DNA from: an uncultured delta proteobacterium
GTDB taxonomy: Bacteria > Myxococcota_A > Polyangia > Polyangiales > Polyangiaceae
DNA: 64,000 nucleotides
Assembly: GCA_963850305.1 (NCBI GenBank)
Contig: CAWKKR010000009.1
Span: 50,720-114,719, forward strand
Reading direction: 5' to 3'
Shown: positions 15,209 to 40,894 of the stretch, piece by piece
Position numbering within the stretch: the first letter of the stretch is position 1
Layout: each line of letters starts with the position of its first letter
Notes under the pieces: generated by a model
What the model was told of the DNA's origin: nothing
Databases searched by the model: none
The model's input: the letters and a program-made list of their open reading frames with translations, nothing else
Position numbers and translations under genes: made by a program

Positions 15209-15282
15209 GTCCCCATCGTCTAGCTGGACCAGGACACGGCCCTTTCAAGGCTGCGACACGGGTTCGAATCCCGTTGGGGACG
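15209..15282 (+). tRNA. tRNA-Glu(TTC)
   Basis: Acceptor stem GTCCCCA/TGGGGAC, anticodon arm CGGCC-CTTTCAA-GGCTG, T-loop GGTTCGAATCC; followed by CTA rather than CCA. Confidence 0.96.
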
Positions 15283-16901
15283 CTACATTAGGAAACTGGC
15301 CTTCGATGGCCAGGAACCTGCCGATGACGGCTTCACCCTCGACCTGAAAACGAGGGCCGTCGGGTGTCTGGATGCCGTGAACGTGAGCTTGTCGGGGAAC
15401 AGTTCGCGGAGGGCTTCACGAGCGTCGTCGGGGTTTCTCTCGAACACGCCTGCCAGGTCGGAGAGACGTTTCTTCGCCTCCGCCTCCATCCGGCGAAGCT
15501 CCAGGTTGATCGCCTCGGGGGCGGCCTGGGCGGCTCGTAGGCGGCTCTCAATTTGGCTGAGCCGCTCTTGTCGTTCACCGATGGCGCGGACGAGAGGCTC
15601 GGGCTTGTCGTTTGCCGTCGCGATGGCGGTCACGAGTCGATCGATCTCGATGCGAAGCTCACGGGCTTCGTCTGCGAGCTTCGGAAGGTCGGTGGTCGTA
15701 GCAACATGACGCTCTTCGAGGCGTCGTCGGGCTTCTTGCAGAGCCAGGACGATGAACTCCTCGGTGAGCACCTTCGCCTTCAGCACCTCGATCAGCGTGG
15801 CGTTTACGTTCGCCACTGGCCTACGCAGCGTGCTCCCGCAGACCTCTGGCCCGCGCTCTTTGTGCCACGAACAGGTGTAGACCTTGATGATCGTCTTGCC
15901 CGCCTTGCTGTTCGTGACCTTGATGGGCCCGCCGCACTGGCCGCACCGCCCGAGCTGGGAGAGCATGTACTTGGGCTTTCGGCCGGAGGGCTTGCGCTTG
16001 CCGGGCTCTTCCTCCGCCCGCGGGATGCGGGCGTGCGCCGCTTGCCAGAGTGCATCGGAGACGATTCGCAGCTCGGGTAGCTCGACCTGGATCCAGTCGC
16101 ACTTCGGTCGCGGGATCCGGACCTTCGTTCCGCCCTTGTAGGTCTTCTGCGTCCGATTCCAAATGGGGCGACCGAGGTACCGCTCGTTTCGGAGCATCGA
16201 GCGGACCGCCGACTGCGACCACGAACCCGTGCCCCTCTTTCCGGCTTGGGGTGAGGGGATACGCCTCGCATTCAATGCTTTCGCGATCGTACGAAGGCCG
16301 TCTCCGCCCGCGTAGCGCTCGAAGATCTCTCGCACAATATCCGCTTGGACCTCGTTGACTACGTCCTCGGCGTGGCTGCGACGGTCACCTTCACGAACCT
16401 CTTTGCTGCCGTACCCAAAGCACCAACCGCCGACCTTCCGTCCCTTGCGCGCCTTTGCGAGCAGATGCTCGAAGGTCCGCTGCGAGATCTTCTCCCGTTC
16501 GAGTTCGCTCGCGAAGTTCTTCGCAGCCATCAGGAACTTGTCGGTCGCGTTGTCGAGAACGACTTCACGGCCCTCGAAGTAGAACCAGAGCTGCACGCCC
16601 GCATCGAGCAGGTTAGACGATGATCAAACCCGTTCGGGATCATGTCCCCACCAACGCGCGTTTCGTCTCGCGTGACGACCACGTCGAATTCGTGGGCTTC
16701 GGCCGCATTGATGAGCTTCAAAAGGGCCGGACGCTTCTTGAATTCGGCTCGGCTGACGGCGTCTTCGAGGTAAATATGGGACTCGGAGAAGAGTTTCCAT
16801 CCTCGCGCTTCAACGAATCGCTTGGCCTCGCCGAGTTGCACGTCGAGCGAGGACATTTGGTGCTCATCCGTGCTCCGGCGAGCGTAGATTGCAGCCCTCA
16901 T
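15245..16901 (-). CDS. Large serine recombinase (apparent frameshifts near 16620 and 15375)
   Basis: N-terminal AAIYARRSTD catalytic motif; recombinase domain; Zn ribbon (CGQCG...YTC..C); coiled coil; alternative frame ends VASPTGFEPVSQP* inside the tRNA antisense strand. Confidence 0.88.
15264..15284 (+). repeat. att core, copy 1 (tRNA-Glu 3' end), TCGAATCCCGTTGGGGACGCT
   Basis: Exact 21-bp direct repeat with 22521-22541. Confidence 0.93.
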
Positions 16902-17122
16902 TTGTCCTCCGGTAGCAACGGGTGACGGAGCACATCGAGCGCCAGGAGGCGTCCAACGGCCGCGCGAACGGACGAAGCCGCGGGGTCCATCGGCCGCTCA
17001 CGAAGGTGCTTGGTGGCCCGTTGTGCTTGAGCCGCCACGCGCGGAGCCCGCGGAGCATCTGGCTGCTCCGACGCGACGTTCGCCGGAGTGTGCTTGCCCC
17101 CTCTTCGAGGGGCCGCGCGCAA
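16898..17122 (-). CDS. Small hypothetical protein overlapping the recombinase start
   Basis: ATGA stop/start overlap with the recombinase; start uncertain. Confidence 0.4.
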   Translation of the reverse strand: MRAAPRRGGKHTPANVASEQPDAPRAPRVAAQAQRATKHLRERPMDPAASSVRAAVGRLLALDVLRHPLLPEDK

Positions 17123-18634
17123 GACTGAAGGAACGCAACGGGGTAGGGTTCGCCCCCCGGTCGGACGAGGGCACCAGCCAGAGTACTGGTCGAGCGTGGG
17201 AAGCGAGGTACACGTTGGGCTTCGTCGTCGTGCGTGTCACCTCTTGGCGGTATCACGAGCGCACCGGGAGGAGCGAGCTCGCGTGCACGAACGCTACACG
17301 CTCGTTTCTGTCGTAGTTTTGATCGGAGACGCTGCGAGTTGCTACTCGGATGGAATGCGCGATACCCTCGCCGAACGCGCTCGAGATCTGCTTCTCGCGA
17401 GAGAACTTCCCGCGGGACGTACGTGTGAGATCGCTACCGCCGTTACGCTCGTTGCGGCGGCTGATCTAGGCGTCGCTCCTCGGGGAACTGCCGTGGCGCT
17501 CTGGAGGTTCATCGGGGAGCAGCCCGAAAGTGAGTGGGCTAGAAAAGCGGCGGACACCATCGGGAAGCTCCCGTTCGACGCAAACATCGACAACGAAACG
17601 GTGAACGTCGTGCGCATGAGGGACACGCCCGCGGAGCTGGTTCGAGCAGGCCGTTCAGGTCCTCGGTGGCCCGAGCTACGCCCCGAGGGTCACGTCCGAA
17701 ATGATTCTCGGGGGCGGCCGAGCGCGGCATCAATCACTACGCCTGCTTCTTGGTGACGGAACTTGTGGGTGCTGCCCACCGTTGCGGCGGGATCCCCACC
17801 GTCGTCATCACCGCCATCATGCACGGCTGGTCCAACGGGAACGACGCTCGTCGTGAGCGGGCTCCGGATCTCGCCATGCTCTTGCCGGTCACCGAAACGA
17901 AGTGGCTCACCAAGATGCTCACCGACACCAGCAGCACCGTTAGAAGGAACATGGCCCGGGTGCTGGCGCATCTATCGGAGGCCGAGAACCTGCTCGATCT
18001 CATCGACGAGCGCCTTGGAGTCGAGACGCACCGGGCCGTCACGGCGGCGCTGTTGGCAGCGAAGGCCGAGATCATGAGAGCGGATGAGATCGTCGTTCAC
18101 CTTGGTAACCCGCAGAACCGGGCGTTTATAGGATCGAGTCGTCCACCGTCGCCGCGAACCCGAGGCCCAATGGAACTGCGGAGAAGAGCTTTCGGTGAGC
18201 GGCGGAAATGCCGTATCCCCCTGGCCTGCTCAAACGGGGTCAAGGGCCCCGGCCACATACGAGAATTTTTCCCGGTGGCTTCTCTTGGCCAAGCACGGGA
18301 AATCCTCGTGACTCCCGACGAGTCGTTCCACAACGCACCAAAAGCCCCCGGGGCGAGTCTGGAACACGACGACGGGCCATCGGGTCGTCCCCTTCGTCCC
18401 GCGCTTCCTGGCCCGTCCTGGACGGTTCTCTCGGGCTGCCGTCGTTCGACGGTGTGTGGGGCGACTAGGGCCCTGACGAGTTCCTTCGGCGGGGGCCCTC
18501 TGCCCGATGGTAGGGCGACGCTTCAAGCCGACAATCACGGCACAGACATGGGCGTTCGTCCGAGGGATCGTTTTTGCCGTCGGCCCGGGACGCGACGGCG
18601 CGCCTCCGTCCACGACAAGGAAGTGTCCCCGGAG

Positions 18635-18889
18635 CTACTTCTTCCGGCCCACGGACGGTCCGAAGTTGACCGTTAGCTCAAGGCCGAGGCCTGCGGATAC
18701 CCGCATGAGAGTATCCACCGTCACGTTCAGTTTTCCCTGTTCGATGCGGGCGTAGTTCGTCGGCAGCATGCCGACCCGCTCCGCCATCACCCGCCGCGAT
18801 AGTCCAGCACGTCGGCGTGCGAGGCGGATCCTCTCGCCCAATTCAACGAGCGTCGCCCGAGTTCGCGGGCTGATCTTCGCGGAAGCCAC
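18635..18889 (-). CDS. XRE-family HTH regulator
   Basis: LGERIRLARRRAGLSRRVMAERVG...YARIEQGKLNVTVDTL. Confidence 0.88.
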   Translation of the reverse strand: MASAKISPRTRATLVELGERIRLARRRAGLSRRVMAERVGMLPTNYARIEQGKLNVTVDTLMRVSAGLGLELTVNFGPSVGRKK

Positions 18890-18986
18890 GCCGCCACGTG
18901 ACTCCCTTGCGTCCCATCGCCGGAAGGACTCATATAAGACTGCTACTCCTATACGACTCCACCTTCGCGGCCTCGGGGAGGCTCAA

Positions 18987-20453
18987 ATGAACTCGACCTG
19001 GATTGGACGGCAGTTCCTCTCTTCGTTTCGGACCGCGGCGTCATCGGCCTTCTTGCTCTGCCTGCTCGTCGGGTGCGGCGGTGCTCAACCCGCGCCACCG
19101 CCCAAGTGGACGACGTGGGTCGAAGAGGACAATCGGTGCTCCGCCGACATCGCCGGTTGCGTGAGCCGATGCGACGCCGAGGAGGCTGTGAAGCCGGGGG
19201 CGGGTGGAGCGGGGGAAACGCCGACGTGCGACCTCCTCCTGGTCAACTGGATCGGCGGGAACGTGGACCCGACAAGCTGGGATGTCACTGGGAACGCCGC
19301 GTACTCGACTTGGCGGGCCCATCACGGCCTTCCGGATCGCGTTGACCAGGCTCCGGGTCGGCTTGAGCTGTTGCGGGAACGCGCCCACGGAATCTGCAAG
19401 CGCGGAGAGGCGCGGGGGTGCCAAGCCGAAGAAGCCGTTTCCGCGAGGATGAACAGCACCCCCTCCAGGACGGACACGGCATCCACGAACGAACAGGCCG
19501 TGGAGATCATCCGTCGGGCCGCGAAGGCGAAGGACCGGGCCAACGCGGCCGTCTCGCTCGACGGCACCGACGACGCGAACAACATCAAGGACGACTTGGC
19601 ATCGTGCACTCGGAGCAGAACCGCGTGCGTCAATGCAGCCGAAGCCGAACAACGCTCTCTTGTTGGGGCATACGCGGGCCTCGCGGTGTACCTCGCGAAC
19701 CTCGTACCCGACGAGCGGAACTACTCGCACGACCCGATGGCGAACCCGGCCCGCGTCGTCGCGATGGAACCGAACATCGCCCGGGCCGAGAAGCTTGCTG
19801 AGCAAGCCGAGCAGGAGGCCGAGAAGGCGGCGGCTTCGAAGCACGAAGCGTCGAGGGCGGTAGACGCCGAGGCCGACGTGATGCTCGAAGCGAAGCACGC
19901 ATGCGACACCGATGCCGCCGTCTGCAAGCACCGATGTGACGGTGGCAATCAACCATACTGCGTTCAACTTGGGGTCCGCGCGTGGAAAGCCGCGCCCCCA
20001 CGTCTCTCGGAAGCGAAGGCGGTTCTTGAGAAGGCGTGTAGCTCGCATGTTCAGACGGCGTGCGCTCTGATGGAGCCCCTCGCGAAGGACATTCAGAGAT
20101 TCGACGCGAAGACGGACGAGTTGTGGGGGCTCGTGACGGACCACGTGGACGACATCGCTCGAAAGCGAAACTTGGTCGCGCTGGCACGAAGGCGGGCTGC
20201 CCCGACGGCGGTGAACGTCGGCGGCTTCATGAGGGCCGACTCCGACCTTGCGGCGTACACCCTCACGACGTACTGCCCCGCCGCGAACGACTTCCTTGCC
20301 CACGCGGGTGTCGCCGAATTCCGCCGACGAGCCAAGCTCAAGTGCACCGATGACCAAGCTCCGACGGGCACGGGCGGGAACAACGACGAGGTCTTCCTCA
20401 CGAGCCAGTGCCGCGCGGTCCTAGCTACGTCGTGCCCCGCACCCCCAAAGTGA
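18987..20453 (+). CDS. Cys-rich secreted lipoprotein of unknown function
   Basis: LLCLLVGC lipobox; many paired Cys; divergent from the XRE gene. Confidence 0.7.
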   Translation: MNSTWIGRQFLSSFRTAASSAFLLCLLVGCGGAQPAPPPKWTTWVEEDNRCSADIAGCVSRCDAEEAVKPGAGGAGETPTCDLLLVNWIGGNVDPTSWDVTGNAAYSTWRAHHGLPDRVDQAPGRLELLRERAHGICKRGEARGCQAEEAVSARMNSTPSRTDTASTNEQAVEIIRRAAKAKDRANAAVSLDGTDDANNIKDDLASCTRSRTACVNAAEAEQRSLVGAYAGLAVYLANLVPDERNYSHDPMANPARVVAMEPNIARAEKLAEQAEQEAEKAAASKHEASRAVDAEADVMLEAKHACDTDAAVCKHRCDGGNQPYCVQLGVRAWKAAPPRLSEAKAVLEKACSSHVQTACALMEPLAKDIQRFDAKTDELWGLVTDHVDDIARKRNLVALARRRAAPTAVNVGGFMRADSDLAAYTLTTYCPAANDFLAHAGVAEFRRRAKLKCTDDQAPTGTGGNNDEVFLTSQCRAVLATSCPAPPK

Positions 20454-20556
20454 ACGGGGTGCGCTCGTTCGCCTGAAGGTTCGGCCGCAACGTCTGTAGA
20501 CGAAGAACGGGGGCGTTTTCTATTTCGGTTCGGTCGAGTGCGTTCCGGACAGCACG

Positions 20557-20656
20557 GGCCGTCCCCACCCCCCAGGCCGAGCCCGTAGTCGTGGGCTCCG
20601 CTCCCGAGGCCGACCCCTCCTCACTGCGTGTGCCGCGGGAGCGTGTGCGACGCGGT
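20557..20656 (+). other. Conserved two-hairpin non-coding motif, copy 1
   Basis: Similar to the reverse complement of 32753-32856, with a compensatory stem change. Confidence 0.75.
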
Positions 20657-20972
20657 GGCGACCGCAACGAATCTCGCTCCGCCGAGTAGGACTTGGACAC
20701 CCCCTCGGCCCGATGCAGCGCGCGTCGGTCGCTGACCGCGTAGCGTGCGGAAGGCACAAATGGCGGTCATGGACCCAAAGAATCTCGCGAATACCATGGG
20801 TTGCGCCTTCGCGGAACGTACTTTCCGGCCACCGTGGGCAGGTGATACGTTCACCGTCATGCTGAGTTCGGGGCGTTCGGAGTGATTTAGCGGGCAACGT
20901 GCACCGACCGTGAGCGTCGAGTCGAAGCTCTTCGGAAGCGCTCAATTACGAATTTCGGGGTCACAACTGTAA

Positions 20973-21143
20973 ATGGACATACCGCCGGTCCTGCTCGACC
21001 ACGTGCGCCAAGGTCAAGTCGTCTTGTTTCTCGGTGCTGGCGCGACGCGCGGTGCCGTCCACCCGACCGCCGGGCCTCCTCCAGATGGTCAGAAGCTCGC
21101 GGACCTCCTTGCAGCGCGCTTTCTTCCGCCCAAGTATTCCGGC
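20973..21143 (+). pseudogene. SIR2-like protein, N-terminal fragment truncated by an IS remnant
   Basis: GQVVLFLGAGA...PDGQKLADLL resembles the SIR2_2 N-terminus; stops at the IS fragment. Confidence 0.65.
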
Positions 21144-21658
21144 CAGCATCCGCGTCGAGAAAGCCGCGAGCACGCGCCGAGCTCGCGATCGATGGGAAGG
21201 TCGGTGCAGCGGCGACCTCCGATTGGACGACCCACGGGTCGTACGAACGCGACCTTGCCGAACCGCGTGCCGATCTCGCTCCGACGCCGCGTGTCCGTGT
21301 CGAGCGCGAATCGCCCGCCGTCATGCTCGTAGGTCGATGGTTGCGGACGGGCAGCGTATCGCACGAGAAACAGGGCCATTACCGCACGCCCGAGATGAAG
21401 CAGCGCTGTCCAGAGTTCTCGCTCGACAGCAGAAAGCGTCGTCGCGTCCTTCGTTTCCGCGCATCTACGAACTCGCTCGCTCGCGCTCTGGACATCCCGT
21501 TCGGCGCGCTCGATAGTCGTCGCCATGGGGCTCCTTCCGGTTGGTGTTCTTGTTTTAGCAACCGGATATCTGCCGCGAATGAGCCCCTCCTTTCAACCTA
21601 CGCGTCGTAACCGATCGATCTCGCTTTGTTTTTCGTCAGCAGATCGGGAACTGCACCC
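21144..21658 (-). mobile_element. Partial copy (left end) of the ISKra4-like element at 48093-49733, internally deleted
   Basis: Matches 48093 onward including the GGGTGCAGTTCCCGATC end; deletion between GCTCG microhomologies. Confidence 0.92.
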
Positions 21659-22347
21659 ACCAAAGTTCTATCCGACGTGCTCGAAGCGAGCGAAGACAGC
21701 CTGTTCCCCCTCCAGGGTGCGCTTGGGTACGAGATTCATCAAACGCTCTTCGTCGGACCGAACTCCCTCATCGTCGAAGGCGTCTCCGACCTCCTCTACA
21801 TCCAGGTTGTGTCGGGTGCCCTGCGGAAGCAGGGTCGTTCCGGGCTCGACGAGCGCTGGACGATCACGCCCGTGGGAGGCTCGACGAAGGTTCCGACGTT
21901 CGTTTCGCTGCTGGGTTCCCAACGGAACATGAAGCTTGCCACGCTTATCGACATCCAGAAGCGGGACGTCCAGACCATCGAGAACCTTCACAAGCGGAAG
22001 CTCCTGGAGAAGAAGCATGTGCTCACATTCGCGAACTTCACCGGCACTCAGGAAGCGGACATCGAGGACATGTTCGACGAAGAGTTCTACTTGACCCTCG
22101 TGAACGGAAGAGTTCTCGAAGTCCCTCCAGACGAAGCTCGCCCCGAGCTCGTTCAAGAGCCAGGCTCCCCGAATCCTCGTCCGCCTCAAGGATCACTTCG
22201 AGGCGAACCCCATGAAAGACGGGGCACGATTCGACCACTACCAGGCCGGCACGCTATCTGACCGAGCACATCGGTGATGTCGCGATACCCGAAGCCACGC
22301 TCGGCCGCTTTGAGGCGGCGTTTGGTGCCCTCAACAAGCTCCTGTAA
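21659..22347 (+). pseudogene. C-terminal TOPRIM part of an OLD-like/AAA ATP-dependent nuclease, 5' part lost
   Basis: LIVEGVSD..ITPVGG..TLID..DIEDMF TOPRIM motifs; begins at the IS end; frameshift near 22105. Confidence 0.75.
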
Positions 22348-22423
22348 GGAGGTGGCCGGGTTCCTCAAGTCTGCGATGGCAGGGCGAACCCCGGGAGCTC
22401 CTGGCCCCGATTGCCGGGCTGCC

Positions 22424-23884
22424 CTACGCCACGTACCTCACGGGGAAGGACAGAAGGAAGCCGGCCCGGGAAGGGGCGGACGGCGGGTTTTCTGCGGGAA
22501 ATCCCGGGTTTCCCAACGTATCGAATCCCGTTGGGGACGCTGACAATGCCTTATTTGTGACTGAATTACGAGATGAAATAGCGCCCGGGGCGATTCGGGG
22601 CGATTCGTCCCCGACTAGGTCGGAGGGCAACGGAGGAAGCGGGGCGCCGATGCGGCGAGCCTCCACGCGCCCGCGGTCGATGTAGCCCTGCGTAGTCTTG
22701 AAATCGCTGTGCCCGCCTGCCCATTGGATCGCGATCGGTGCATCGCCTCTCACGGCCATGTGTGTCAGGCCCGTGTCGCGTAGATCGTGGAAGAGGATCG
22801 AGCGGCGCAGCGGGTCGCCCTCGATGTGGAGCGCTTTGCGTGTGACCCCCACGTGAACGAGATCCCGGCGGAGCTGCTCCGCGCGGTCCTCAGGCCGCGG
22901 CATATGAAGCAAGCGGCTCTTCTTCCCTGCGGGGTGCGCGACGAGATGCTCAAGTAGCGGACGAAGATGCGGCTCGACATCGATCACCCGTACGCGCTTG
23001 GTCTTCGTTGCCTTCGTCTTTGCTCGACCCTTGCTCTTGCGATCCGACTGCTTGTCGATGGTGATGGTGCCGTGTGCCAGATCGATATCGCTGGCCGTGA
23101 GCGCTTCGAGTTCCGACGCACGCGCCTTCGTGTAAGCGGCCATCGCGTAGCACTGGCGCCGATACAGCGGAACCGGGGGCGCGTCGGGGTCGACGGGAAT
23201 GCCCCGAAGCAAGGCGAGTAACTCATCGCTGTACAAGATCTGGCCTTCGCGCTCTTCGCCGCTATCGGGGCCACGCACATCCCGCCAAGGGTTGGCCGTG
23301 AGGACGCGAAGCGATGCATCCTTGGATCGCACGGCCTCGTCGAGAGCGTGCATCGCGTCGCCCCACACGTTCCTTGCGGTCGAGGGCGATAGCCTCCCTT
23401 CTCCGGGGCCTTTCTTGGCGAACTCTGCGACTGCTCGATCGAGTCGCGTAACGATTCGCTCCCCGTCCTCGATGGAGAGAGAGCCGTCACGCATCGTCTT
23501 CTGCTCGATGCCGGGAAGGATCCAGTTGCGGGCGCGCCCGCGCATGTCGCCCACGGTCGCGAGGCCCTTCGCCTCCTTCGCGGCGTGCAGACGAGCGAAC
23601 CACTTCCCAACCGTCTCGCCCTCGCCGCCGTTGTTCACGCTTGCCGCGCGAACCTTCGGCGCCATTCTCGCGGCGCACGCCTTCGCTCCGGCCTCGTCGT
23701 CGAGCGAGATGCGGCCCGGCAGCGGTAGCCACTCGGAGCGCGTTCCGTCGGCCCTTGTCCACCTGCCGTGCCATACCGGCTTGCCGTCCTCACCGTTCAG
23801 GATGCGGACGGTACCTGTTGCCGTGCGGCCCACGGCTACCACCCTCCTGGCGCGTGACGTATTGTTTCTCTCATCGGAACTCAA
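22424..23884 (-). CDS. Tyrosine integrase of element 2; ORF reads through the att core
   Basis: YTKARASEL, FHDLRDTG, AGHSDFKTTQGY catalytic motifs; SASPTGFD encoded across the att core. Confidence 0.92.
   Translation of the reverse strand: MSSDERNNTSRARRVVAVGRTATGTVRILNGEDGKPVWHGRWTRADGTRSEWLPLPGRISLDDEAGAKACAARMAPKVRAASVNNGGEGETVGKWFARLHAAKEAKGLATVGDMRGRARNWILPGIEQKTMRDGSLSIEDGERIVTRLDRAVAEFAKKGPGEGRLSPSTARNVWGDAMHALDEAVRSKDASLRVLTANPWRDVRGPDSGEEREGQILYSDELLALLRGIPVDPDAPPVPLYRRQCYAMAAYTKARASELEALTASDIDLAHGTITIDKQSDRKSKGRAKTKATKTKRVRVIDVEPHLRPLLEHLVAHPAGKKSRLLHMPRPEDRAEQLRRDLVHVGVTRKALHIEGDPLRRSILFHDLRDTGLTHMAVRGDAPIAIQWAGGHSDFKTTQGYIDRGRVEARRIGAPLPPLPSDLVGDESPRIAPGAISSRNSVTNKALSASPTGFDTLGNPGFPAENPPSAPSRAGFLLSFPVRYVA
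22521..22541 (+). repeat. att core, copy 2 (junction of elements 1 and 2)
   Basis: Identical to 15264-15284. Confidence 0.93.
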
Positions 23885-23907
23885 CTCCGGTCACGGCCCT
23901 CGGCGCG

Positions 23908-24558
23908 TTACGACCGCGCGCGGGGGCCTTCTAATTCGTCTGCAAGGCTACACCAGCGCGAAGCCGCCCGCACTCCGCGCCTCGCTGGACGCCAGCCCCG
24001 CGCCGCGGCGAGCTGCCGCCGGAAGACGACGAGCGTCAGCACGAAACCCGTGACGAAGCCGCCGATGTGCGCGGCCGTCGCGACATCGCCGCCAGTTCCC
24101 GTGACCGTGTGCCAGATGTTGAGCGCCGCGAAGGCCGCGACGAACCCGAGCAGGCGCGGGTAGAGCATCGCGGCGGCCGCCATGACGGCGAAGATCGATC
24201 CCGACGCGCCGACCTCGGGCACGAGGGATCCCGGATTCGCGAGCATGTGAAACGCAGCCGCGCCGACACCCCCGAGTGTGAACAGCACGACGAAGCGCAC
24301 GTGCCCGATGGAGCGCTCGACGAGCGCCCCGAAGAACGCCAAGGCGAGCACGTTGCCGCCCACGTGCCAGAGGTTGCTCGCGTCGTGGAGGAACAGCGAG
24401 CTGAACGCCGTGCCGAGGCTCGGGTGCTCCGGCACGAAGCCGAAACGCTGGCAGAGCCCCATGCCCTCGCCCCGGAGTTCGACAGCGAAAACCCCGAGGA
24501 TCGCGGCCGTGAGCGCGACGGTCACGACCGGGAGCGGGGCTCGGGCGTGGCGGTTCAT
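23908..24558 (-). CDS. Rhomboid family intramembrane serine protease
   Basis: SLFLH...WHVGGN, GASGSI, AHIGGF. Confidence 0.9.
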   Translation of the reverse strand: MNRHARAPLPVVTVALTAAILGVFAVELRGEGMGLCQRFGFVPEHPSLGTAFSSLFLHDASNLWHVGGNVLALAFFGALVERSIGHVRFVVLFTLGGVGAAAFHMLANPGSLVPEVGASGSIFAVMAAAAMLYPRLLGFVAAFAALNIWHTVTGTGGDVATAAHIGGFVTGFVLTLVVFRRQLAAARGWRPARRGVRAASRWCSLADELEGPRARS

Positions 24559-24606
24559 GGGCTTTCGGTCATACGTCGTCGGCCGAGCGTCCTTCCTTAG
24601 CCGGGC

Positions 24607-25611
24607 TCAGACGCTCCCCCGCGTGCCAGCGGAGTCCGGTGGCGGCGCCGTGGCCGGATATTGTCGGTCGTCGGCGGCTCGCGCCGCCGAATATCCGGCC
24701 ACGCGATCCTTGAGCTCCGCCAGCGAGTGCCCGGCGGCGAGATAGTCGTCTAGCCCCATGTTCGACGGCAGGACAGCGACGCGCACGTTCGCCCCAAGCT
24801 CCGTCAGAAACTCCCAGAGCTTGCGCTCCTGCTCGCGCACTTCGTCATTCGTGCTCGCGTCGCCGTCGAAGGCAATGACAACGTCTCGCCCTCCTACGCC
24901 GATGTAGTTCCACTCTTCACGGACGAACGAGATCATGCGGACACCTTGCACCGCCACACAGGCCCAGCCGAGCGAGACCGCCGCATCGGCCTTCCTGGGG
25001 CTTTCGCTCACGTACAAAGTGCAGTCGTGGTCGAGCACACGCGTGCGAGCGTACGGCGATACATCGACCACCGCGACTGCCCCGCGCTCGTTGCGGTAGC
25101 GATCTCGCCGTTTCCTGGGGTTGTCGACGCGAACCTGGGCCCAGATTTTATTGCCTTGTGGGTTCCAGATCGGGATCACGAGCCCATCGGGACCGGAGGC
25201 GTAACCGCGCATCCTTGCGACCTCCGGTGAGACTCCGCTCCGATGCAGCAGCGCACAGTGTTCGGGGCTCATGCGTCCGTAGGCGAAGACGTACGCCGGG
25301 ATCGGTTCACGAGCGAGATACTCCTGCAACGTTGTCCGTGGCACCCCCGCATGGCGAGCAGCTGCGCGCACGTTGCCGCGAGTTTCTTGCATGGCGACGA
25401 TGACGCTATCGCGATTGAGCCCGCGCCTAGGTCTGCCGCGCCTACGAGCCCGTTTCTTCTCCGGTGGCGCAGGCAGCTTCAGATCGCTGGGAGACGTGAT
25501 GCCGAGCAGGGTAGATAGTTCGTGCGGCCTCAGGCCGAGGCAGTGACGCAGCGCGCTCAGACACCGCCGGTGGTTTTCGATCCACCACGCTCGCAACTCG
25601 TCGTCGATCAC
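24607..25611 (-). CDS. HTH + DUF3854-like (TOPRIM/primase-like) protein
   Basis: GNVRAAARHAGVPRTTL HTH; ESPRKADA, RDVVIAFDGDASTN, GLDDYL. Confidence 0.78.
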   Translation of the reverse strand: MIDDELRAWWIENHRRCLSALRHCLGLRPHELSTLLGITSPSDLKLPAPPEKKRARRRGRPRRGLNRDSVIVAMQETRGNVRAAARHAGVPRTTLQEYLAREPIPAYVFAYGRMSPEHCALLHRSGVSPEVARMRGYASGPDGLVIPIWNPQGNKIWAQVRVDNPRKRRDRYRNERGAVAVVDVSPYARTRVLDHDCTLYVSESPRKADAAVSLGWACVAVQGVRMISFVREEWNYIGVGGRDVVIAFDGDASTNDEVREQERKLWEFLTELGANVRVAVLPSNMGLDDYLAAGHSLAELKDRVAGYSAARAADDRQYPATAPPPDSAGTRGSV

Positions 25612-26590
25612 CTGCTCTGCTTCCTTCGCTGGGTATCTGGCTCTAGCTCCGGCGTGATGGCGCCCGCTCGCGCCGCGCCGTCAAGCTCGGTGGAGAGCAT
25701 CTCGACGGCCGCGCAGGCGCGGTCGAGAGCGTGCGCGACGGTAGGTAGGGATCCAGCAGGGCGCTTCATCTGCATTCGATCTACCTACGTCGACTGCTGC
25801 GCGTTCCTTCCCTCCCGCGCGGCACGCCCTGGCGGTAAGCCTCCGCACCGCCCGCGACGCAGATCGACCCGGGTGGCGGAAACGACGGACCGCACGATCC
25901 CTGGTCCCGCGCGACGGCTTTCCGCGGCGCTACTTCACCGCCGGACCTTCCTCCGCACCTCCGCTGCCATCTTCGGCACTCCAAGATCGTTCGCGACGTA
26001 GGCCGCCATCGGCGGCACCGCGACCAAGACCCCGAACGATTCGGTGACGGTGGATCTCTCGACGCGGAAGCGGACGCTAGCCGTGAACGTCGAGCCATTC
26101 GTAGATCAACTCGTGACGTCACCAAGTAGTATCCGCGATCAACGCGGGCCAATCACCCCCACCCCCTCCGATCGGCCGAGTCCAAAGCCGTGGACTCCGC
26201 TCCATTTGACCGCCTCCTCACTTTGACCAAATGGAGCGCGCGGGACGCGATCCTCAGTTGATCAGCGCGATGGAACACGTCTACGCCGACAGGGAACTCG
26301 CGCGCCCGGGTCGCTTCTGTTCCGGCCGGCGCCGACCCGCGACCTCCTGCATCGTCACGGACGGCGCGTCTGTCGGAGGTGAGGAGCCGCGGCTCTTCTA
26401 TTACTGGCAACGGCAGCTCTTCGAGAACGCCGGCACAACGCTCGGAACGCCTCGAAGGGGACACCGAGCCGCGAGCGCGAGCTCGAAGCCAACGTCGGCG
26501 CAGCTCGAGGCCAAGCTCGCGAAGAAGGACGCGGTGAATCCGGGCGGTGATCTTTCGGGCGCCACCTCGTAGAGGCGCCCTCGAATGGCG

Positions 26591-26911: not shown

Positions 26912-27000
26912 GAGGCGGCACGTTCGCCTTGCCCCAGGCCACTAAAAAGGTGATCATGATCGCCTCGTCCGCGAGCCGAGGAGATCGGCTGGATTGGGGA

Positions 27001-28491
27001 ATGACCGCGACGGACCACGACGACAAAACGACCGAGCTGCTCGACCCCCTCGTCGCGCGGGCCCGCCAGCGCGTCGGCAGCGTGCTCAAAGAGAAGTGGC
27101 GCCTCGACGTCCTTCTCGGTGTCGGCGGCATGGCGGCCGTCTATGCAGCCACGCATCGCAACGGCAGTCGCGTGGCGATCAAGATCCTTCACCCGGAGCT
27201 GAGCGTCAGCGCCGATGTGCGCACGCGCTTCATGCGCGAGGGCTACGCGGCGAACGCCGTCGGTCACGACGGGGTCGTTCGCGTCTCTGACGACGATGTC
27301 GCCGAGGATGGGTCTGCGTTCCTCGTCATGGAACTCCTCGACGGCGAAACGCTCGAAGATCGCCGCCAACGTAACGGAGGCCGACTCAGCGAGGACGAAG
27401 TGCTCTCTGTCGCCGACCAACTCCTCGATGTGCTCGTGGCCGCGCACGCCAAGGGGATCATCCACCGAGACCTCAAGCCCGAGAACGTCTTCATTGCCCG
27501 CGATGGCCGCGTGAGGGTTCTCGATTTCGGAATCGCGCGCCTCAGGGAGATGTCCGGCGCGAGCCACGCGACGCGCACCGGCTTCTCGATGGGCACGCCC
27601 GCATACATGGCGCCCGAGCAAGCGCGGGCGCTTTGGAATGAAGTGGATGGGCGAACCGATCTGTGGTCGCTCGGTGCGACGCTGTTCTCGCTTCTTTCAG
27701 GCAGAGAAGTTCATTCCGGGCGCACCGCCAACGAGGTCCTCATCATGGCAGCGACGCAGCCCGCGCCGCCGCTCGCGTCGGTTTTACCGACGGTGAGCCC
27801 CGCAGTCGCGCGCGTCGTGGACAAGGCCGTCGCGTTCGAGCGCGAGCATAGGTGGCGAGATGCCGCGACGATGCAAGAAGCCGTGCGGTCCGCGTACCAC
27901 GATCGGCACGGCACGCCGTTCCCCACGGCTTCGCAGCTCACGGTTCCGCCGACGGTCGTGAATCGGACGTTGGCTTCGGCGGCGGTGAGCGCCGTGTCAC
28001 CCGGGGCACCGACAACGAACCGCGCGGTCGCGACTTCTCATATCGGTGCGTCGCTCGCGTCTCTTGCTGCGCGCTTCCCGAGCCTGAGCCCAATCGCCCT
28101 TGGCGTCGGTGGCGCTGTGATCGTCGCCGCGATTGTTGTTGGCGTAGTTCTCGTGTCAAGCGGAAGCAAAGCCCCGGCGTCACCGGCGGCGGCGACAACG
28201 ACGGTTGCCGCTAGACCCGAGCCATCGGTCCCGAGAATCGCCTCGAGCTCGCCCGCGACGGCAGCGGCTCCCGAACCGAATGCCGCGCCGACAATCGCGG
28301 TGACTGATTTGCCGACGGAGACGGCTCCGGCGGTAACAATCGTGAAGCCGGCACCAAAGCCTCGAGTCCTGGCCCCGGCGCCTCCGACTCCGACGGCGGC
28401 AGCCGCGAAGACGGCAAAACCCGACTGTAGCCCGCCGTATGTGCTCGACCCCGTGACTGGAACGAAAAAATGGAAGCCAGCATGTTTCTAG
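27001..28491 (+). CDS. Hanks-type Ser/Thr protein kinase with TM helix and Pro/Ala-rich tail
   Basis: LGVGGMAAVY, VAIK, HRDLKPEN, DFG, GTPAYMAPE. Confidence 0.96.
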   Translation: MTATDHDDKTTELLDPLVARARQRVGSVLKEKWRLDVLLGVGGMAAVYAATHRNGSRVAIKILHPELSVSADVRTRFMREGYAANAVGHDGVVRVSDDDVAEDGSAFLVMELLDGETLEDRRQRNGGRLSEDEVLSVADQLLDVLVAAHAKGIIHRDLKPENVFIARDGRVRVLDFGIARLREMSGASHATRTGFSMGTPAYMAPEQARALWNEVDGRTDLWSLGATLFSLLSGREVHSGRTANEVLIMAATQPAPPLASVLPTVSPAVARVVDKAVAFEREHRWRDAATMQEAVRSAYHDRHGTPFPTASQLTVPPTVVNRTLASAAVSAVSPGAPTTNRAVATSHIGASLASLAARFPSLSPIALGVGGAVIVAAIVVGVVLVSSGSKAPASPAAATTTVAARPEPSVPRIASSSPATAAAPEPNAAPTIAVTDLPTETAPAVTIVKPAPKPRVLAPAPPTPTAAAAKTAKPDCSPPYVLDPVTGTKKWKPACF

Positions 28492-29351
28492 CGGCGCGAA
28501 CCCGAACGGCGCTTCTCGCTGCGGCGACGATGATCGCGGCCAGATCCGGGGTCGCTGCCGAATCGGCGCCGACGAAGGCGGAATGCATCGCGGCGAGCGA
28601 ATCTGGCCAGGACCTTCGCCACGCGGGGAAGCTCAACGATGCCCGCACGCAGTTCGCGGTCTGCGTGGCGGCGAGCTGCCCGGGACCGATCCGCGATGAC
28701 TGCGCACAGCGCCGGAACGAGATCGCGAAGGCGATGCCTTCGGTCGTGTTCGAGGTGAAGGACGCGACCGGCAACGACGTGCCGGGCGTGGCGATTACGA
28801 TGGACGGGCAGTCCGTTGCGGGCGTCGGCACGGCTATCGAGCTCGACCCCGGGGAGCACAACTTCACCTTCGAGGCGCAGGGGCTCCCGAATATCGAAAA
28901 GCGACTCTTCATTGCCGAGGGCGTGAAGCAACGGCGCGAGGTCGTCATCATGTCCCGCGGTGAGACGGCGCAGCCCGTGAACACGGCCTCACCGACAACG
29001 GGCGAAGCGTCCGAGCGATCGGCCCCGCTGCCGACTCTGGCCTGGGTGGCGTTCGGAGTCGGTGGGGCGGGGTTGCTGCTCGGCATGACTGCCGGTCTGG
29101 TCGCCGGAGCGAAGCACTCCTCGCTTTCGAACGTCTGCAACGACACCGCCGGCACCTGCCCACCGACGTACAGCGACGACCTCGACTCGTTCCACACGTG
29201 GCGAACGGTTTCGACCGTTGGTTACGTTGTCGGCGTGCTCGGCGTCGCGGGCGGTACAGTCCTGTGGCTGACAGCGCCGAAGGCGGCGAGCACGATGACG
29301 GCGCGTGTGTGGCTCGGACCTGGGTCGGCAGGGATCGCGGGGAGGTTCTGA
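28482..29351 (+). CDS. Secreted PEGA-like kinase-associated protein
   Basis: Signal peptide, Cys-paired helical region, LDPGEHNFTFEA, C-terminal GIAGRF; overlaps the kinase stop. Confidence 0.72.
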   Translation: MFLAARTRTALLAAATMIAARSGVAAESAPTKAECIAASESGQDLRHAGKLNDARTQFAVCVAASCPGPIRDDCAQRRNEIAKAMPSVVFEVKDATGNDVPGVAITMDGQSVAGVGTAIELDPGEHNFTFEAQGLPNIEKRLFIAEGVKQRREVVIMSRGETAQPVNTASPTTGEASERSAPLPTLAWVAFGVGGAGLLLGMTAGLVAGAKHSSLSNVCNDTAGTCPPTYSDDLDSFHTWRTVSTVGYVVGVLGVAGGTVLWLTAPKAASTMTARVWLGPGSAGIAGRF

Positions 29352-29809
29352 TGCGCGCGTGGTTGCCCGTCGTGCTGACGGTGCCCTTCGCGCTCGCGGG
29401 CTGCCCGGCGGTGCTTAGCGACTGGACGATCAGCGGCAGCGACGCGGGTGATGCTTCGCCCGGCGCCTCACCGAATCCGGACGCCGGGGGAGGCGGCGCA
29501 GGGGGTGCCCTGGTCGATGCCGGGATGCCAGGCGCGTCAGGCGGCTCAGGATGTCCGACCGGCGCTGTTCGCTGCTCAGGGATCCAACCGCAGGCGTGCA
29601 TCAGCGACGTGTGGCTCGCCAATGGTTCGGCTTGTCCGGAGGCTTGCCTTAACGGCGCCTGCGCGACGCGGTCAGAAGGCGGTAGCTGCAACCCCGCGGT
29701 CTGTCCTGCGCCCGGCACCGGAACCGCTTGTTGCACTACTACCGACCAGTGCGGCACCGACTTCGGCCACGGCTGCGTACCGGCCGCGCAAATAGACGCC
29801 GGGGCCTGA
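29351..29809 (+). CDS. Cys-rich lipoprotein
   Basis: MRAWLPVVLTVPFALAGC lipobox; TGATG coupling with the upstream gene. Confidence 0.72.
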   Translation: MRAWLPVVLTVPFALAGCPAVLSDWTISGSDAGDASPGASPNPDAGGGGAGGALVDAGMPGASGGSGCPTGAVRCSGIQPQACISDVWLANGSACPEACLNGACATRSEGGSCNPAVCPAPGTGTACCTTTDQCGTDFGHGCVPAAQIDAGA

Positions 29810-29827
29810 ATTACTCGAGGGATATTG

Positions 29828-31114
29828 ATGCGCGCGTGGCTACCAATCGTTTTCATTCTATCGGCTGCGCTCACGGGGTGCCCGGCGCTGCTCAGCGATT
29901 GGACGGTCACCGGTGGCGGCGCGGGCGATGCCGGTCGTGATGTTGCCGGTGGCGGCGCGGGCGACGGTGGCGGCAGCGGCTCGTCGGGCTCGAGCTCGAC
30001 GGGCGGCGCTTCGAGCACAGGCGGAGATAGCGAAGTGGGCTCATCGTCGGGCGGCTCGACCAGCTCCGGTCCTTGCGCCGACGGCAAAACGACGACGGAC
30101 TGCACGAACCAGTGCAGTCTCGCAGGACCGGTCAAGTGCTGCTCTGGCATCGGCAAATGCGGCTGCACCTGGTCGCCGGGCGCGTACTGCACCGGCACAA
30201 CGGCGAGCGGTGGAACCGATGGCGGTGCGGCGCCTCCGAGCTGCAACGGCCTTCCCGCCACGTGCGGCCCTTCGGGGAACGAGTCGTGCTGCGCGAGCCT
30301 GCTGGTGACGGGTGGGACGTTCTATCGGAGCTACGACGGCGTCAGCTACACGAGCCAAGCGTACCCCGCGACGGTGAGCAATTTCTTGCTCGACCGGTAC
30401 GAAATCACCGTGGGGCGGTTCCGGAAGTTCGTGGCGGCGTATTCGCAGAGCATGATCGTGGCTGGTGCTGGCAAGAATCCGAACAATGCCAGCGATCCCG
30501 GCTGGGACACGACGTGGAACGCGAGCCTTCCGGCAAACGCGACAGCGCTCACGACGGTCATTCAATGCAACCCGACGTATCAGACGTGGACCGCGAGCGC
30601 GGGGTCGAACGAGGACCGGCCGATGAACTGCATCGACTGGTACGAGGCGAATGCGTTCTGCATCTGGGACGGCGGGAGGCTGCCGACGGAGGCGGAGTGG
30701 AACTACGCGGCGGCGGGAGGTACAGACCAGCGGGTGTACCCGTGGGGAGCCACGGCGCCGGACTGCACTTATGCGAACTACTATGGAGCCGCGGGCGGTA
30801 CGGATTTCTGCGTGTTGCCCGGGACGGGCTCGACGAACAACGTGGGCTCGGAATCTCCGAAGGGCGACGGCAAGTATGGGCAGGCGGACCTTGCCGGCAA
30901 CGTCTGGGAGTGGACGCTGGACTGGTTTGCGAATCCGTACTCGCAAACGTCCTGCACAAACTGTGCCGATACAACAGCAGCCACGTCCCGGATCCTCCGC
31001 GGCGGGAGCTTCTTCGACAGTGCGTCGTTCCTGCTCTCGTCGTACCGCGGCGACCTCGTCCCGACGTCCCGCAGCTACAACTTCGGTTCCCGGTGCGCCA
31101 GGAGTGCGCCGTAA
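29828..31114 (+). CDS. Lipoprotein with FGE-sulfatase (SUMF1/C-lectin fold) domain
   Basis: LDRYEITVGRF, RLPTEAEWNYAA, DLAGNVWEW, RGGSF..GSRCAR. Confidence 0.92.
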   Translation: MRAWLPIVFILSAALTGCPALLSDWTVTGGGAGDAGRDVAGGGAGDGGGSGSSGSSSTGGASSTGGDSEVGSSSGGSTSSGPCADGKTTTDCTNQCSLAGPVKCCSGIGKCGCTWSPGAYCTGTTASGGTDGGAAPPSCNGLPATCGPSGNESCCASLLVTGGTFYRSYDGVSYTSQAYPATVSNFLLDRYEITVGRFRKFVAAYSQSMIVAGAGKNPNNASDPGWDTTWNASLPANATALTTVIQCNPTYQTWTASAGSNEDRPMNCIDWYEANAFCIWDGGRLPTEAEWNYAAAGGTDQRVYPWGATAPDCTYANYYGAAGGTDFCVLPGTGSTNNVGSESPKGDGKYGQADLAGNVWEWTLDWFANPYSQTSCTNCADTTAATSRILRGGSFFDSASFLLSSYRGDLVPTSRSYNFGSRCARSAP

Positions 31115-32752: not shown

Positions 32753-32856
32753 ACCGCGCCGCGCACGCTCCCGAGGCACACGCAGTGAGGAGGGGGTCGG
32801 CCTCGGGGAGCGGAGCTCGCGTCTTCGAGCTCGGCCTAAGGGGGGTGGGGGCGGCC
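32753..32856 (-). other. Conserved two-hairpin non-coding motif, copy 2
   Basis: Reverse complement aligns to 20557-20656. Confidence 0.75.
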
Positions 32857-32969
32857 TGGCGCTACCGCGAGCGTAGCGCACGAAGAAACGCTGCGCCGAT
32901 CGCTTTGGAGGACGACACGCGGGCCCAACATTTCGGGCGTTGAGCGCGCGTGCGCCTCGACAGGGTTGC

Positions 32970-33155: not shown

Positions 33156-33425
33156 TTGGACCGATCCTTTCACGAGGGCAGAAAGCCCGCCCTGATACCG
33201 GTCTGACGGTGCGTCACGGGCACGGATTCACCGATGCGGCCCAGCGCGCTTGCATCGCGACCGCTGGCGTCCCGATCCGAAAGCCGTCGGGGGGCGGCTG
33301 GCTCCGGGATCCGGGCACTCATAGTTAGCTCGTCGAGCCCGAGCCCAGAAGACGGCCTGCTTGTGCCCGAACAAAAATCGCGTACAGTAGTGAATGTCCG
33401 GCGCGAGCGCTCCGTCGTACTGATT

Positions 33426-33555
33426 GCCCGCGGAGAGGCTTCGTATCTCCGATGAAAAGCCCGCGGAGAGGCTTCATATCTCCGACAAAGCCCGCGGAGA
33501 GGCTTCGTATCTCCGACAAAGCCCGCGGAGAGGCTTCGTATCTCCGACAAAGCCC
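33426..33555. repeat. 4 x 31-bp tandem repeat GCCCGCGGAGAGGCTTCGTATCTCCGACAAA
   Basis: Four head-to-tail copies, each containing a CGGAGA/TCTCCG inverted pair. Confidence 0.93.
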
Positions 33556-33624
33556 CCGGTCGGCTTCGGTCGAACGGGGGCGCACTTTTGCGTGCTGGAG
33601 TTGCGAGTTGCGATCGTCGTGAGC

Positions 33625-33747: not shown

Positions 33748-33836
33748 CCAAACCCCGTCCCCGTCGTCGACCCGCCGCTCCCCGCCGTCCACGACGGCCC
33801 CGGGCCGTCAAGGACGGGGATTTTCGGTACATTTTG
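33748..33836 (+). repeat. 105-bp unit copy A (5'-truncated)
   Basis: AACCCCGTCC...AAGGACGGGGATTTTCGGTACATTTTG. Confidence 0.93.
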
Positions 33837-35298
33837 AGCGCGCGTGCAGAGTCGCGAGGAGGAGCATCTGGGAGCCGCGCGCGGGTTCGGTCGATCTCGG
33901 GAGGGGTCGCTTCAAGAACGCGATGCAGAGCCGCGGGTGTGCGCGCAGTGTCGCCTCCAGATCCACGAGCGACCCGGGCAGGGTCTTGCTGGGCGGCAGA
34001 GGACGTTGGACGAGCATCGGCCGGACGTCGTTCGACAGCAGGCTGCAGACTCTGGCAGGCGGCACTCGCGCGGCGAGAGCCTGCCAGCGTGGCGCGGAGA
34101 ATTCTCTGGGTAGTCGCGCCGACGGGAAGTGGGCATTCGCTGCCGACGCGAAGCGGCACAGGCAGACCAGGCCGAGAATGACGATGGGCCCCGTGAACGC
34201 GAGTTGCCATTTCGTCCGGGCGCGGCCGACGACGCGGCTGGCGAGGACGGCTCCCAACGCCCACGTCGGCACCCAGAAGCGGACTTCGGTCAAAGGATTG
34301 AAGTCGCTGAACGTCGCTGCAACGACCATCGTCGCGACGTAACCCGCGAAGGTGAGGGCTATCAGGCGCACGTAGTTCGAGCGCCAGATGCGCATGCCGA
34401 CGCACAGCACGCAGAAGCACAGGACCGGCACGGCCACCTCGAGGCGTTCGGTCCATGACGGTCGTCCGGGTAAGAGCCCGGCATCTGCGAGCCACTGCAC
34501 GGAACCCGCGGCCGCGCGCACGATGTTCTCGTGAAATCCGTTGTAGTGCACGCTCCGATCCCCCATGAGAGATCCGGAGACGAGTCGATTTCTGACGAGA
34601 AGCGGTACGGTGACGGCTGCGAGCGCCGCAAACAGCGGCACGAACTGCGTCAGGCGGGTCCAGAGGGAGCCGCGGCGCGCCGCGAGGAGCCCGAGGACGA
34701 CTCCCAGAATGACGCCCTGGCCGGCGTAGCGGAACAGAAACGTCACGCCGAGCGCGACGCCACAGGCCACCTGAAGCCGGGGTCGTCTCTCTCGGACGAG
34801 TGCCGTTGCTAGCAGGACCGAGCAGAGCGTCGCGGCGGCAAAGGGCAAGTCGCTCAGCACGGCGTCGACCGTGACGAGCGTGCTCGGCTGAAGCGCGACG
34901 CAGAGCGTGAACAACGTGACGACGGGCCACGCCTTTGCCCCAGCAACGCGGCACCCGAGGCCGAAGAGAGCGGCAACGAAGACGACATACGCGATGCCGA
35001 GGACCACTGGCGCCCCTGATAGCGGACTTGCCCCGAACCATACAGGCACGGCCAGGCACGCCGAGAAGGCTGGGGGCCACGGCGTGATGGGGTCGAAGGC
35101 ACTCGACCCGACGAGCGCGCCGCGGGAGGTGACATACCCCTCGAAAGCTGCCAGGTATCGAGCGCCATCGATGTACGTCGCGCTGTCCCACGAAGCGCTT
35201 CCGCCCGGCCCCCACAGCCACGCGACCCAGATCGCGACGGCGATCGTTCCTACACCCGCCGCCGCAGCCCTCATTCGGTTCGATGATGCACGAGTCAC
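33837..35298 (-). pseudogene. Multi-TM GT-C-type (ArnT/PMT-like) glycosyltransferase, 3' end cut by unit A
   Basis: WDSATY..A, PWPP, LSDLPF, FRYAG motifs; ORF runs into the repeat and ends KCTENPRP. Confidence 0.65.
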
Positions 35299-35737: not shown

Positions 35738-36124
35738 CGGTACCTGCGTTCAAGGGACGCTCCACGAAACACTCATTAGGAGATGATGACGGCAGGTCAA
35801 CTCGCACCTCATGGTCATGAGCAGCGTGCATCGTGCGCGAGGACGCAGGAATTGCGTCCAGCTTGGGCGCTCTTGGACATGATGCGATCATTCGATCACG
35901 GGCCTGGTCAAGCAACCGGGCCGCGCACCGGGAACTGCGCGCACCCTCGTGACGCCGTGGAGACATCAAAGATCTTCCTACGACCATCGTGGTGGTCACG
36001 TGCGAGGCTCCATTTTCGGTGAGGCACTTTGCCACAAATACTGGAGCCGTGCTCACGCACGTCCCGAGGGCCTGAACTTTTCCGATGTAGATGCGTCTGG
36101 ATCGCCTATCATTGCCCTTCGACG

Positions 36125-36229
36125 CCGGAGACCAGGGCGACCAACCCCGTCCTCGTCGTCGACCCGCCGCTCCCCGCCGTCCCACGACGGCCCCGGGCCG
36201 TCAAGGACGGGGATTTTCGGTACATTTTG
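36125..36229 (+). repeat. 105-bp unit copy B
   Basis: CCGGAGACCAGGGCGACC...GGTACATTTTG. Confidence 0.95.
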
Positions 36230-36230
36230 A

Positions 36231-36431
<201 letters not shown>

Positions 36432-40710: not shown

Positions 40711-40803
40711 GCGACCAACCCCGTCCTCGTCGTCGACCCGCCGCTCCCCGCCGTCCCACGACGGCCCCGGGCCGTCAAGGACGGGGATTTTCGGTACATT
40801 TTG
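40711..40803 (+). repeat. 105-bp unit copy C (5' end replaced by IS4)
   Basis: GCGACCAACCCC...GGTACATTTTG directly follows the IS4 end. Confidence 0.95.
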
Positions 40804-40894
40804 GTTGGGGTGTCCACGAAAGCGGGGGATCATCAGGGCGGTGCCGCTGGTAGCCGCCAGCACGCTGGCCGTCGAGAGGAACGGCGGGAGCTAC

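Follow-up and report, generated by a model that had tools for sequence, protein, structure and literature searches.

A non-coding motif lies at 20557-20656 (+) of the 64,000-nt stretch of DNA, from an uncultured member of the Polyangiaceae, that was analysed here (the window), and recurs at 32753-32856 (-). The question that it raises is whether it represents the gene of a small RNA (sRNA) or a single-stranded DNA site, oriT-like or a packaging signal, that the integrative elements of the window would use in trans. Both possibilities had been put forward in an earlier note, which described two hairpins under selection at these two places.

The motif and its copies in the window

The two copies aligned with 87.5% identity over 104 columns (E 4.5e-28 against the 6.26-Mb genome), while their flanks are unalike and both are intergenic, just as first described. 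The first hairpin (P3 in what follows) is present in both sequences as it had been drawn. The second had been given as a 12-bp stem, which is right for copy 2 (12 bp, with one extra C), but in copy 1 it has 11 bp and one mismatch, A·G. The C-rich tract noticed upstream is also there, but a third hairpin (GGCC/GGCC, 20557-20578) has it as its loop. Both of the original hairpins are real, but with this third one and a 5-bp helix they are predicted to make up a four-way junction of ~105 nt.

Copy 1, junction and tail included, covers 20551-20654 (+) (to 20661 by nhmmer) and scores 118.7 bits with the covariance model (CM). It contains the 5' strand of P1 (20552-20556, pairing with 20644-20648) and the hairpins P2 (20557-20578, with the C-rich loop CCCCACCCCCC), P3 (20579-20598, with the loop A-G-N-C-G) and P4 (20599-20643), the latter with an anti-Shine-Dalgarno-like (aSD) CCTCCTCAC in its loop at 20616-20624, and it ends in the 3' tail G-R-C-G-C (20649-20654). 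Copy 2 extends over 32755-32863 (-) (from 32748 by nhmmer; 107.9 bits). A third copy, absent from the earlier note, was found by nhmmer at 26141-26249 (+) (to 26256; 67.9 bits). It is divergent from a DUF3854 primase-like gene, and its P4 inner stem is wholly re-written with CCTCCTCAC kept.

Distribution in the genome, the genus and beyond

Iterated nhmmer searches, run until they converged, found 7 copies in the genome, so that the motif is not confined to the two reported places. Besides the three in the window, there is one each at C5:9257-9371, C6:258024-258131, C7:572711-572822 and C7:620145-620259. With the covariance model we detected 23 copies across 7/7 genomes of this Polyangiaceae genus (2-7 per genome), and by BLAST at least 2 copies were found in 6/6 other genomes of the genus and 0 in 30 other genera of the family. 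One copy is located head-to-head with sucA in all seven genomes of the genus (next to our own copy sucA was identified by Pfam), and another copy of this genome, outside the window, is divergent from fusA. In the sister genus improved models recovered 3 divergent copies in 2/2 genomes, in tandem in one of them, 68-89 nt upstream of tRNA-Leu(TAG). The family is thus known from two genera of uncultured organisms.

Wider searches added few loci. Model R1 matched 3/121 family genomes, all of the own genus, model R2 8/40 relatives and model R3 6/150 family genomes and, at the level of the order, 1/150, which is the own genome, none being found in the 149 others; in the three large genome searches only 25-31 candidates per genome were scored, under strict filters, so that absence there is to be read as 'not found'. 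When the sucA loci were used as synteny anchor a significant match appeared in 1/29 genomes, belonging to the own genus, and in none of the 28 other genera, and with the tRNA-Leu loci in 1/30 (G014). A pattern scan of named genomes gave 81 scored loci (80 of the 92 pattern matches in the genome collection plus 1 viral), 6 of them CM-confirmed and all six titled Polyangiaceae. In metagenomes 19/62 loci were CM-confirmed, some of which duplicate genome copies. Viral contigs gave no CM-supported match, and a metagenome locus that agrees with the viral pattern match in length and range was not CM-confirmed.

A multi-copy, palindromic and intergenic sequence with 7 copies in this genome could be taken for a selfish repeat of the REP or MITE type. 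We consider this scarcely credible, since only 2-7 copies occur per genome and their orthologous positions are retained across the genus. Identity among the copies ranges over 58-88%, their differences include compensatory changes, and most of them follow a promoter-like box of their own. A genuine near-identical ~100-bp repeat found in the same window looks very different.

Predicted structure and covariation

The predicted architecture consists of P1 (5 bp) closing P2 (C-rich loop), P3 (nAGnCG loop) and P4 (CCUCCUCAC loop), followed by the tail. The junction has zero or one unpaired base, though its sequence varies. Among 31 distinct sequences 97.5% of the 832 stem cells are paired, and slid registers pair in 26-51%. 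Two-sided changes are found in 19/27 pairs (4/5 in P1, 5/7 in P3 and 10/11 in P4), a value that 0/500 shuffles reached, in an alignment that was fitted to the model and where much of the signal tracks the split between subtypes A and B. P2, with 97.6% of its cells paired, has only one-sided changes of the G-U type, and for P3 there is also the conservation of its columns. The fitting of the alignment and the A/B split are the reasons why we also applied a tree-aware test with substitution-permuted nulls. Here 7/28 proposed pairs were significant at E<0.05, distributed in P1 (one pair), P3 and P4, and none in P2. The best-scoring column pair on the tree was a non-proposed one, 81:131 (E 0.07 over all pairs), and therefore some residual phylogenetic signal is present. 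By parsimony we counted ~27 double and 57 single changes that preserve pairing versus 25 that break it. On the C-rich strand G·U appears in 50 cells of 17 pairs versus 8 cells of 4 pairs for A·C, a bias that points towards this strand and RNA.

The junction is the minimum free energy (MFE) and centroid fold of copy 1. It is also, independently of the model, the MFE of copy 3, of an own type-B copy (shifted by one pair) and of a held-out sister-genus copy. In two cases, copy 2 and the own copy at sucA, the junction is beaten in MFE by a helix between the 5' end and the tail. The z scores of single-sequence folding were -1.05 for copy 1, -2.75 for copy 2 and -3.09 for copy 3, so the structural evidence lies in the covariation and folding alone is weak for copy 1. 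RNAalifold on a MAFFT alignment recovered P1 and P3 and missed P2 and P4 because the type-B rows were shifted by one column.

Among the 29 rows with a P4 loop, 28 retain the CCUCCUCAC sequence; the loop is missing in 3/32 rows (L031, L045 and L046), in which the scaffold is nevertheless preserved, and the sister-genus loops differ. The A-G-N-C-G of the P3 loop and the CGC of the tail are invariant in 32/32 rows. Pairs can be drawn between these two parts (G72-C145, C74-G144, G75-C143 and Y76-R142). The last of them is canonical in 29/31 rows (CG 15, UA 9, UG 5), more than the 25/31 of the alternative pairing within P3, but 76:142 was not significant on the tree (E 0.73) and it is broken in 1/2 held-out copies, and we regard a putative P3-loop/tail pseudoknot as a lead only. 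Other contacts were inspected by eye in the alignments and rejected: a kissing pair between the P3 and P4 loops (no covariation), a conserved tail/P4-loop pair and a helix conserved between the 5' end and the tail (changes at the 5' end are not matched in the tail). A conserved small ORF after the tail was also discarded, as in one genome the ATG is immediately followed by a stop.

Promoter and terminator signals

Upstream sequences were taken from the 43 aligned copies; 8 were removed as near-identical and 4 as shorter than 60 nt, leaving 31. A TAnnnT -10 box ending 4-9 nt before the motif, a range picked after the genus copies had been viewed, was present in 24/31, and 16 of those 24 had a TTG 17-19 nt upstream of the box. 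For comparison, the genome background was 0.9%, shuffled upstreams gave a mean of 1.6 (maximum 7) and shifted windows 0-1. Furthermore, all of the 10 metagenome-only rows, which were retrieved after the pattern was first noted, contain the box. With its threshold of 9-of-12, a generic promoter scanner did not pick up these predicted promoters. In the window, promoter-box scoring identified TAGTAT 8 nt upstream of copy 3 (26127-26132, +) and TACGCT 6 nt upstream of copy 2 (32870-32875, -; scored on the identical upstream of its C5 duplicate, L030). Copy 1, the one originally flagged, has TGCGTT instead at this position (20539-20544, +; scored without consensus), and it may be silent.

A hairpin followed by a T-run, as in intrinsic terminators, was detected downstream of 11/31 copies versus a background of 3.8%. 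Ten of these 11 are within the 14 rows of type B/D, where the terminators are found ~30 nt past the tail; type-A copies are without terminator. The motif is intergenic and, judging by these sequence signals, has a promoter of its own and a defined 3' end, as expected for an sRNA gene. Together with the covariation and the G·U strand bias, the signals support both claims of the earlier note, a structure under selection and an sRNA. The three outcomes named there as fatal to its proposal, a REP/MITE, a match to an Rfam family and the lack of covariation, were all looked for and none was found.

A CACTGATATCGTG motif, conserved in L039, L040, L025, L037 and L200, separates the predicted promoter of the sRNA from the start of sucA and is probably the promoter of sucA or an operator.

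The position of some copies invites another explanation, namely that the motif acts in cis on its host transcript as a 5' leader, a processing element or a self-cleaving ribozyme. Two copies, both without the aSD loop, precede an isocitrate-dehydrogenase-family gene in the same orientation by ~100 nt, the copies of the sister genus precede tRNA-Leu(TAG) also on the same strand, and a metagenome copy (L210) abuts a downstream ATG. Compact folds with invariant loop bases are in addition a trait of ribozymes. On the other hand, the order in type-B copies is promoter, motif, terminator, with no gene inside, the neighbour genes vary between loci, and no Rfam ribozyme or riboswitch matched over any tested copy with E up to 10, all of which makes a cis-acting element improbable.

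Mobile elements of the window and the cis-site question

Copy 1 is contained in an att-bounded serine-recombinase element (15284-22520) recognised by the tRNA, the Resolvase and Recombinase Pfam matches and the att repeat. It is bounded by a tRNA-Glu (15209-15283), whose 21-nt 3'-end repeat (15264-15284) recurs at 22521-22541, and after the tRNA come a serine recombinase in two ORFs, an HTH gene, a 561-aa ORF and copy 1. The recombinase (15283-16901, -) is split in two overlapping ORFs in different frames, a resolvase part (16530-16901) and a recombinase part (15283-16596, -), and is a single ORF in two relatives. The 561-aa ORF (18768-20453, +) has a lipobox-like LLVGC and no Pfam or PHROG match; in the Atlas it gave only sub-0.9 leads, to unnamed Myxococcota and Campylobacterota clusters and a Sel1 cluster.

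The second element begins with tyrosine integrase, rhomboid and DUF3854 primase-like genes (22424-25611, -; Pfam, and a PHROG match for the primase). After the DUF3854 gene come copy 3, a kinase cluster, an exonuclease and copy 2. A repeat search did not find its right boundary, and copy 2 is in or beside the element. Copy 2 is within a 1.84-kb cassette duplicated with 98% identity at C5:8284-10122. In the cassette a 62-codon Gly/Ser/Lys-rich ORF (33155-32970, -), identical on C5 and with no Pfam match, is located directly upstream of copy 2. Four direct repeats of 31-33 bp, iteron- or operator-like, lie upstream of this small ORF at 33423-33559 and are also duplicated (C5:8552-8694).

Other features of the region deserve mention. 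A block with a Ser/Thr kinase, a secreted protein and an FGE-sulfatase (26929-31114) recurs on C5, C6 and C7 at 68-93%, and on C5 it adjoins an integrase-like ORF and a rhomboid fragment, as recurring island cargo. A near-identical repeat of ~90-110 bp, MITE- or IS-end-like, is found at 33751-33838, 36120-36229, 40710-40804, 44520-44624 and 46262-46367, inverted at 44155-44221, and in many copies on other contigs, often edging inserted blocks. A long GAC trinucleotide tract (36311-36424) adjoins one of its copies. In G000, 22-nt units starting with TCCTCAC are regularly spaced in a CRISPR-array-like manner at C8:467953-468122 and C11:110170-110672, with weak matches to the P4 loop.

All three window copies are in or beside integrative elements, no relaxase was detected among the 52 ORFs scanned and the stems could fold as DNA too, and this is what a site acting in trans as single-stranded DNA would have in its favour. 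Such a site should be confined to, and kept in, a class of elements. What we found is that 7/7 genomes have a copy fixed in the chromosome next to sucA, in divergent orientation. Furthermore, serine-recombinase elements at the same tRNA-Glu are present in two relatives, one with a terminase and the other with a Prim-Pol, and an unfiltered CM scan of their 20-kb regions gave no copy of the motif. Because both of these sister elements lack it, the motif is most likely not an oriT or packaging site. The promoter and terminator signals and the G·U strand bias also go against such a site, as does the lack of any full-length match in 72,556 plasmids and 50,697 phages and of any CM-supported viral match. 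This half of the original proposal is therefore largely refuted, and we give it an extremely low probability. The same CM scan of three related island regions of the own genome found no copy either. The terminase-bearing sister element is itself 11.3 kb long and att-bounded (L275:8194-19544, G006), resembling a small prophage or satellite.

Mobile or duplicated DNA harbours at least four of the seven own copies, and the metagenome copy L210 is 1.7 kb from a tyrosine integrase. Those facts, and the small Gly-rich ORF that copy 2 follows, might suggest an RNA antitoxin or an antisense regulator encoded by the elements and serving them. This is very unlikely, given that no start codon follows the antisense GAGGAGG, that the small ORF, without Pfam match, is not beside the other window copies and that the conserved copies are chromosomal. 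Copy 1 is nearer in sequence to the sucA copies (87.5% identity) than to the copy-2 type (82.6%), and copy 3 is about equally far from all the others (about 60%). This agrees best with separate captures of a host gene, and we infer that the copies in elements are likely passengers, host sRNA genes carried as cargo.

Comparison with known RNA families

At gathering score the tRNA was the only Rfam match in the whole window. With Rfam 15 and E up to 10, eight copy-bearing loci gave no match over any copy (none at all for copy 1, and six at the seven further loci, none of them over a copy). A resemblance to the L3 loop of the HDV ribozyme was discarded, as the topologies disagree and Rfam gave no match. 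A search of the openly accessible literature, with few of the supplements, showed no description of the motif.

A close analogy is with the cuckoo/alpha-r14 sRNAs of Alphaproteobacteria (NfeR1, RSs0680), which are also multi-copy and have anti-SD loops on stems of variable sequence. NfeR1 silences ntrB by pairing of its aSD loop (PMC10746234). Cuckoo RNAs consist of 2-4 open hairpins, all of them with CCUCCUCCC, and lack a multiloop (PMC4615179). In contrast, our motif has one CCUCCUCAC loop and one CCCCACCCC loop and not CCUCCUCCC in every loop, and it has a closed four-way junction, with a P1 that covaries, and an invariant loop and tail that are not C-rich. Membership was rejected on both counts, the repeated loop motif and the multiloop, and on the absence of an Rfam match.

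6C, from the high-GC Actinobacteria, has C-rich loops that bind several mRNAs without RNA chaperones (PMC6486639). Our motif shares with it the C-rich loops, predicted to be single-stranded, and Hfq and ProQ were likewise not found in the 94.8%-complete genome of its host, with controls that worked. It differs from 6C in the phylum, the four-way-junction scaffold and the several paralogues per genome, and the 6C model of Rfam gave no match over the copies (E up to 10).

Pxr (RF01812), from Myxococcus and relatives, is also myxobacterial, of ~108 nt and with a C-rich first loop, and an 8-nt run, CCCCCACC, is common to it and to the P2 loop of our motif. It is described as three open stem-loops with a sigma-54 promoter behind nla19/pxrR, reported from Cystobacterineae only, with paralogues in Cystobacter (PMC5568312), and Pxr is inactivated by a C-to-A change in its SL1 loop (PMC5684412). 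The neighbours of our motif are sucA, fusA and others, not nla19/pxrR, and its boxes are sigma-70-like, a type of promoter different from that of Pxr (PMC5568312, PMC11928866). Identity with Pxr was discarded: RF01812 finds nothing in this genome with E up to 10, a Pxr-like locus reaches just 5.6 bits when scored with our model, and 0/32 copies align to that locus better than shuffles (lowest p 0.11). A phylum-wide search for Pxr found none over the cut-off in 150 genomes. By this comparison the motif represents a new RNA family that likely acts as the known C-rich-loop sRNAs do, on a different scaffold.

Mechanism and targets

The reading that we favour as the most likely, with moderate confidence, is that of a sibling family of trans-acting sRNAs, whose C-rich loops would pair with G-rich initiation regions without Hfq or ProQ. 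A sigma-70-type promoter would transcribe the C-rich strand and the RNA would fold into the four-way junction, exposing the C-rich loops. These would pair with the G-rich ribosome-binding regions of mRNAs (this organism uses SD words of the AGGAG type), so that translation would be blocked with no need of Hfq. Pairing through C-rich loops has precedents in 6C, in NfeR1 and in Pxr, where a C of the SL1 loop is essential. A small pseudoknot between the P3 tip and the CGC tail may guard the 3' end of the copies without terminator. The copies in elements would be captured genes of the host sRNA, and that of the serine-recombinase element perhaps a silent one.

The search for targets gave little to build on. 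Stretches of more than 10 nt complementary to the P4 loop were found only in the RNA genes of the motif itself, and when duplex energies were predicted for 5,000 crudely called genes no outlier emerged. A 9-nt seed was found at 1 predicted start versus 0.33 expected, and the sucA leader showed no consistent pairing with the motif RNA. The proximity to sucA and icd, at the 2-oxoglutarate node, is a neighbourhood observation only.

An RNA that acts in trans by binding a protein, as a sponge, decoy or scaffold, is a serious rival because there is no outstanding mRNA target, the aSD loop is missing from three copies and conservation is strictest in the P3 tip and the tail. A partner protein would here recognise the junction and the pseudoknot, with the C-rich loops of secondary importance. 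That the most invariant bases are those of the P3 tip and the tail and not the aSD fits protein binding equally well, and the junction keeps at most one unpaired base despite its sequence changes. Against it, CCUCCUCAC is preserved in nearly all the loop-bearing rows (28/29), even with the P4 stem re-written as in copy 3. The proteins and RNAs that could be expected do not help this case either: in five genomes SRP was found elsewhere in 5/5, 6S-like candidates, below the cut-off, elsewhere in 4/5, and Ro60/TROVE in 0/5, so that Y RNA, SRP and 6S were all rejected as identities. Overall we judge binding to a protein possible, though on the unlikely side. The below-cut-off 6S RNA candidates of these four Polyangiaceae genomes (G000 C7:307629-307819, L286; and L283-L285) are recorded here as such.

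A bolder version, which we find rather doubtful, would make the motif a new compact class of RNA. In it a pseudoknot-locked junction would provide a chassis resistant to nucleases or recognised by proteins, carrying swappable C-rich seed loops, tied to the 2-oxoglutarate node and repeatedly captured by elements that would tune translation.

Significance

Pxr is the only myxobacterial sRNA that our literature search turned up, and its targets are still unknown. The motif would add a second and unrelated myxobacterial family, a predicted sRNA from the Polyangiaceae. It is directly testable because it has precise predicted ends, a fold backed by covariation and a core locus that is fixed, and because the anti-SD loop is present in some of its natural variants and missing in others. 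If the favoured sRNA reading is true, pairing through C-rich loops without chaperones would take place in a Gram-negative lineage that lacks Hfq and on a scaffold unlike those of cuckoo, 6C and Pxr, and integrative elements would be carrying copies of a host sRNA.
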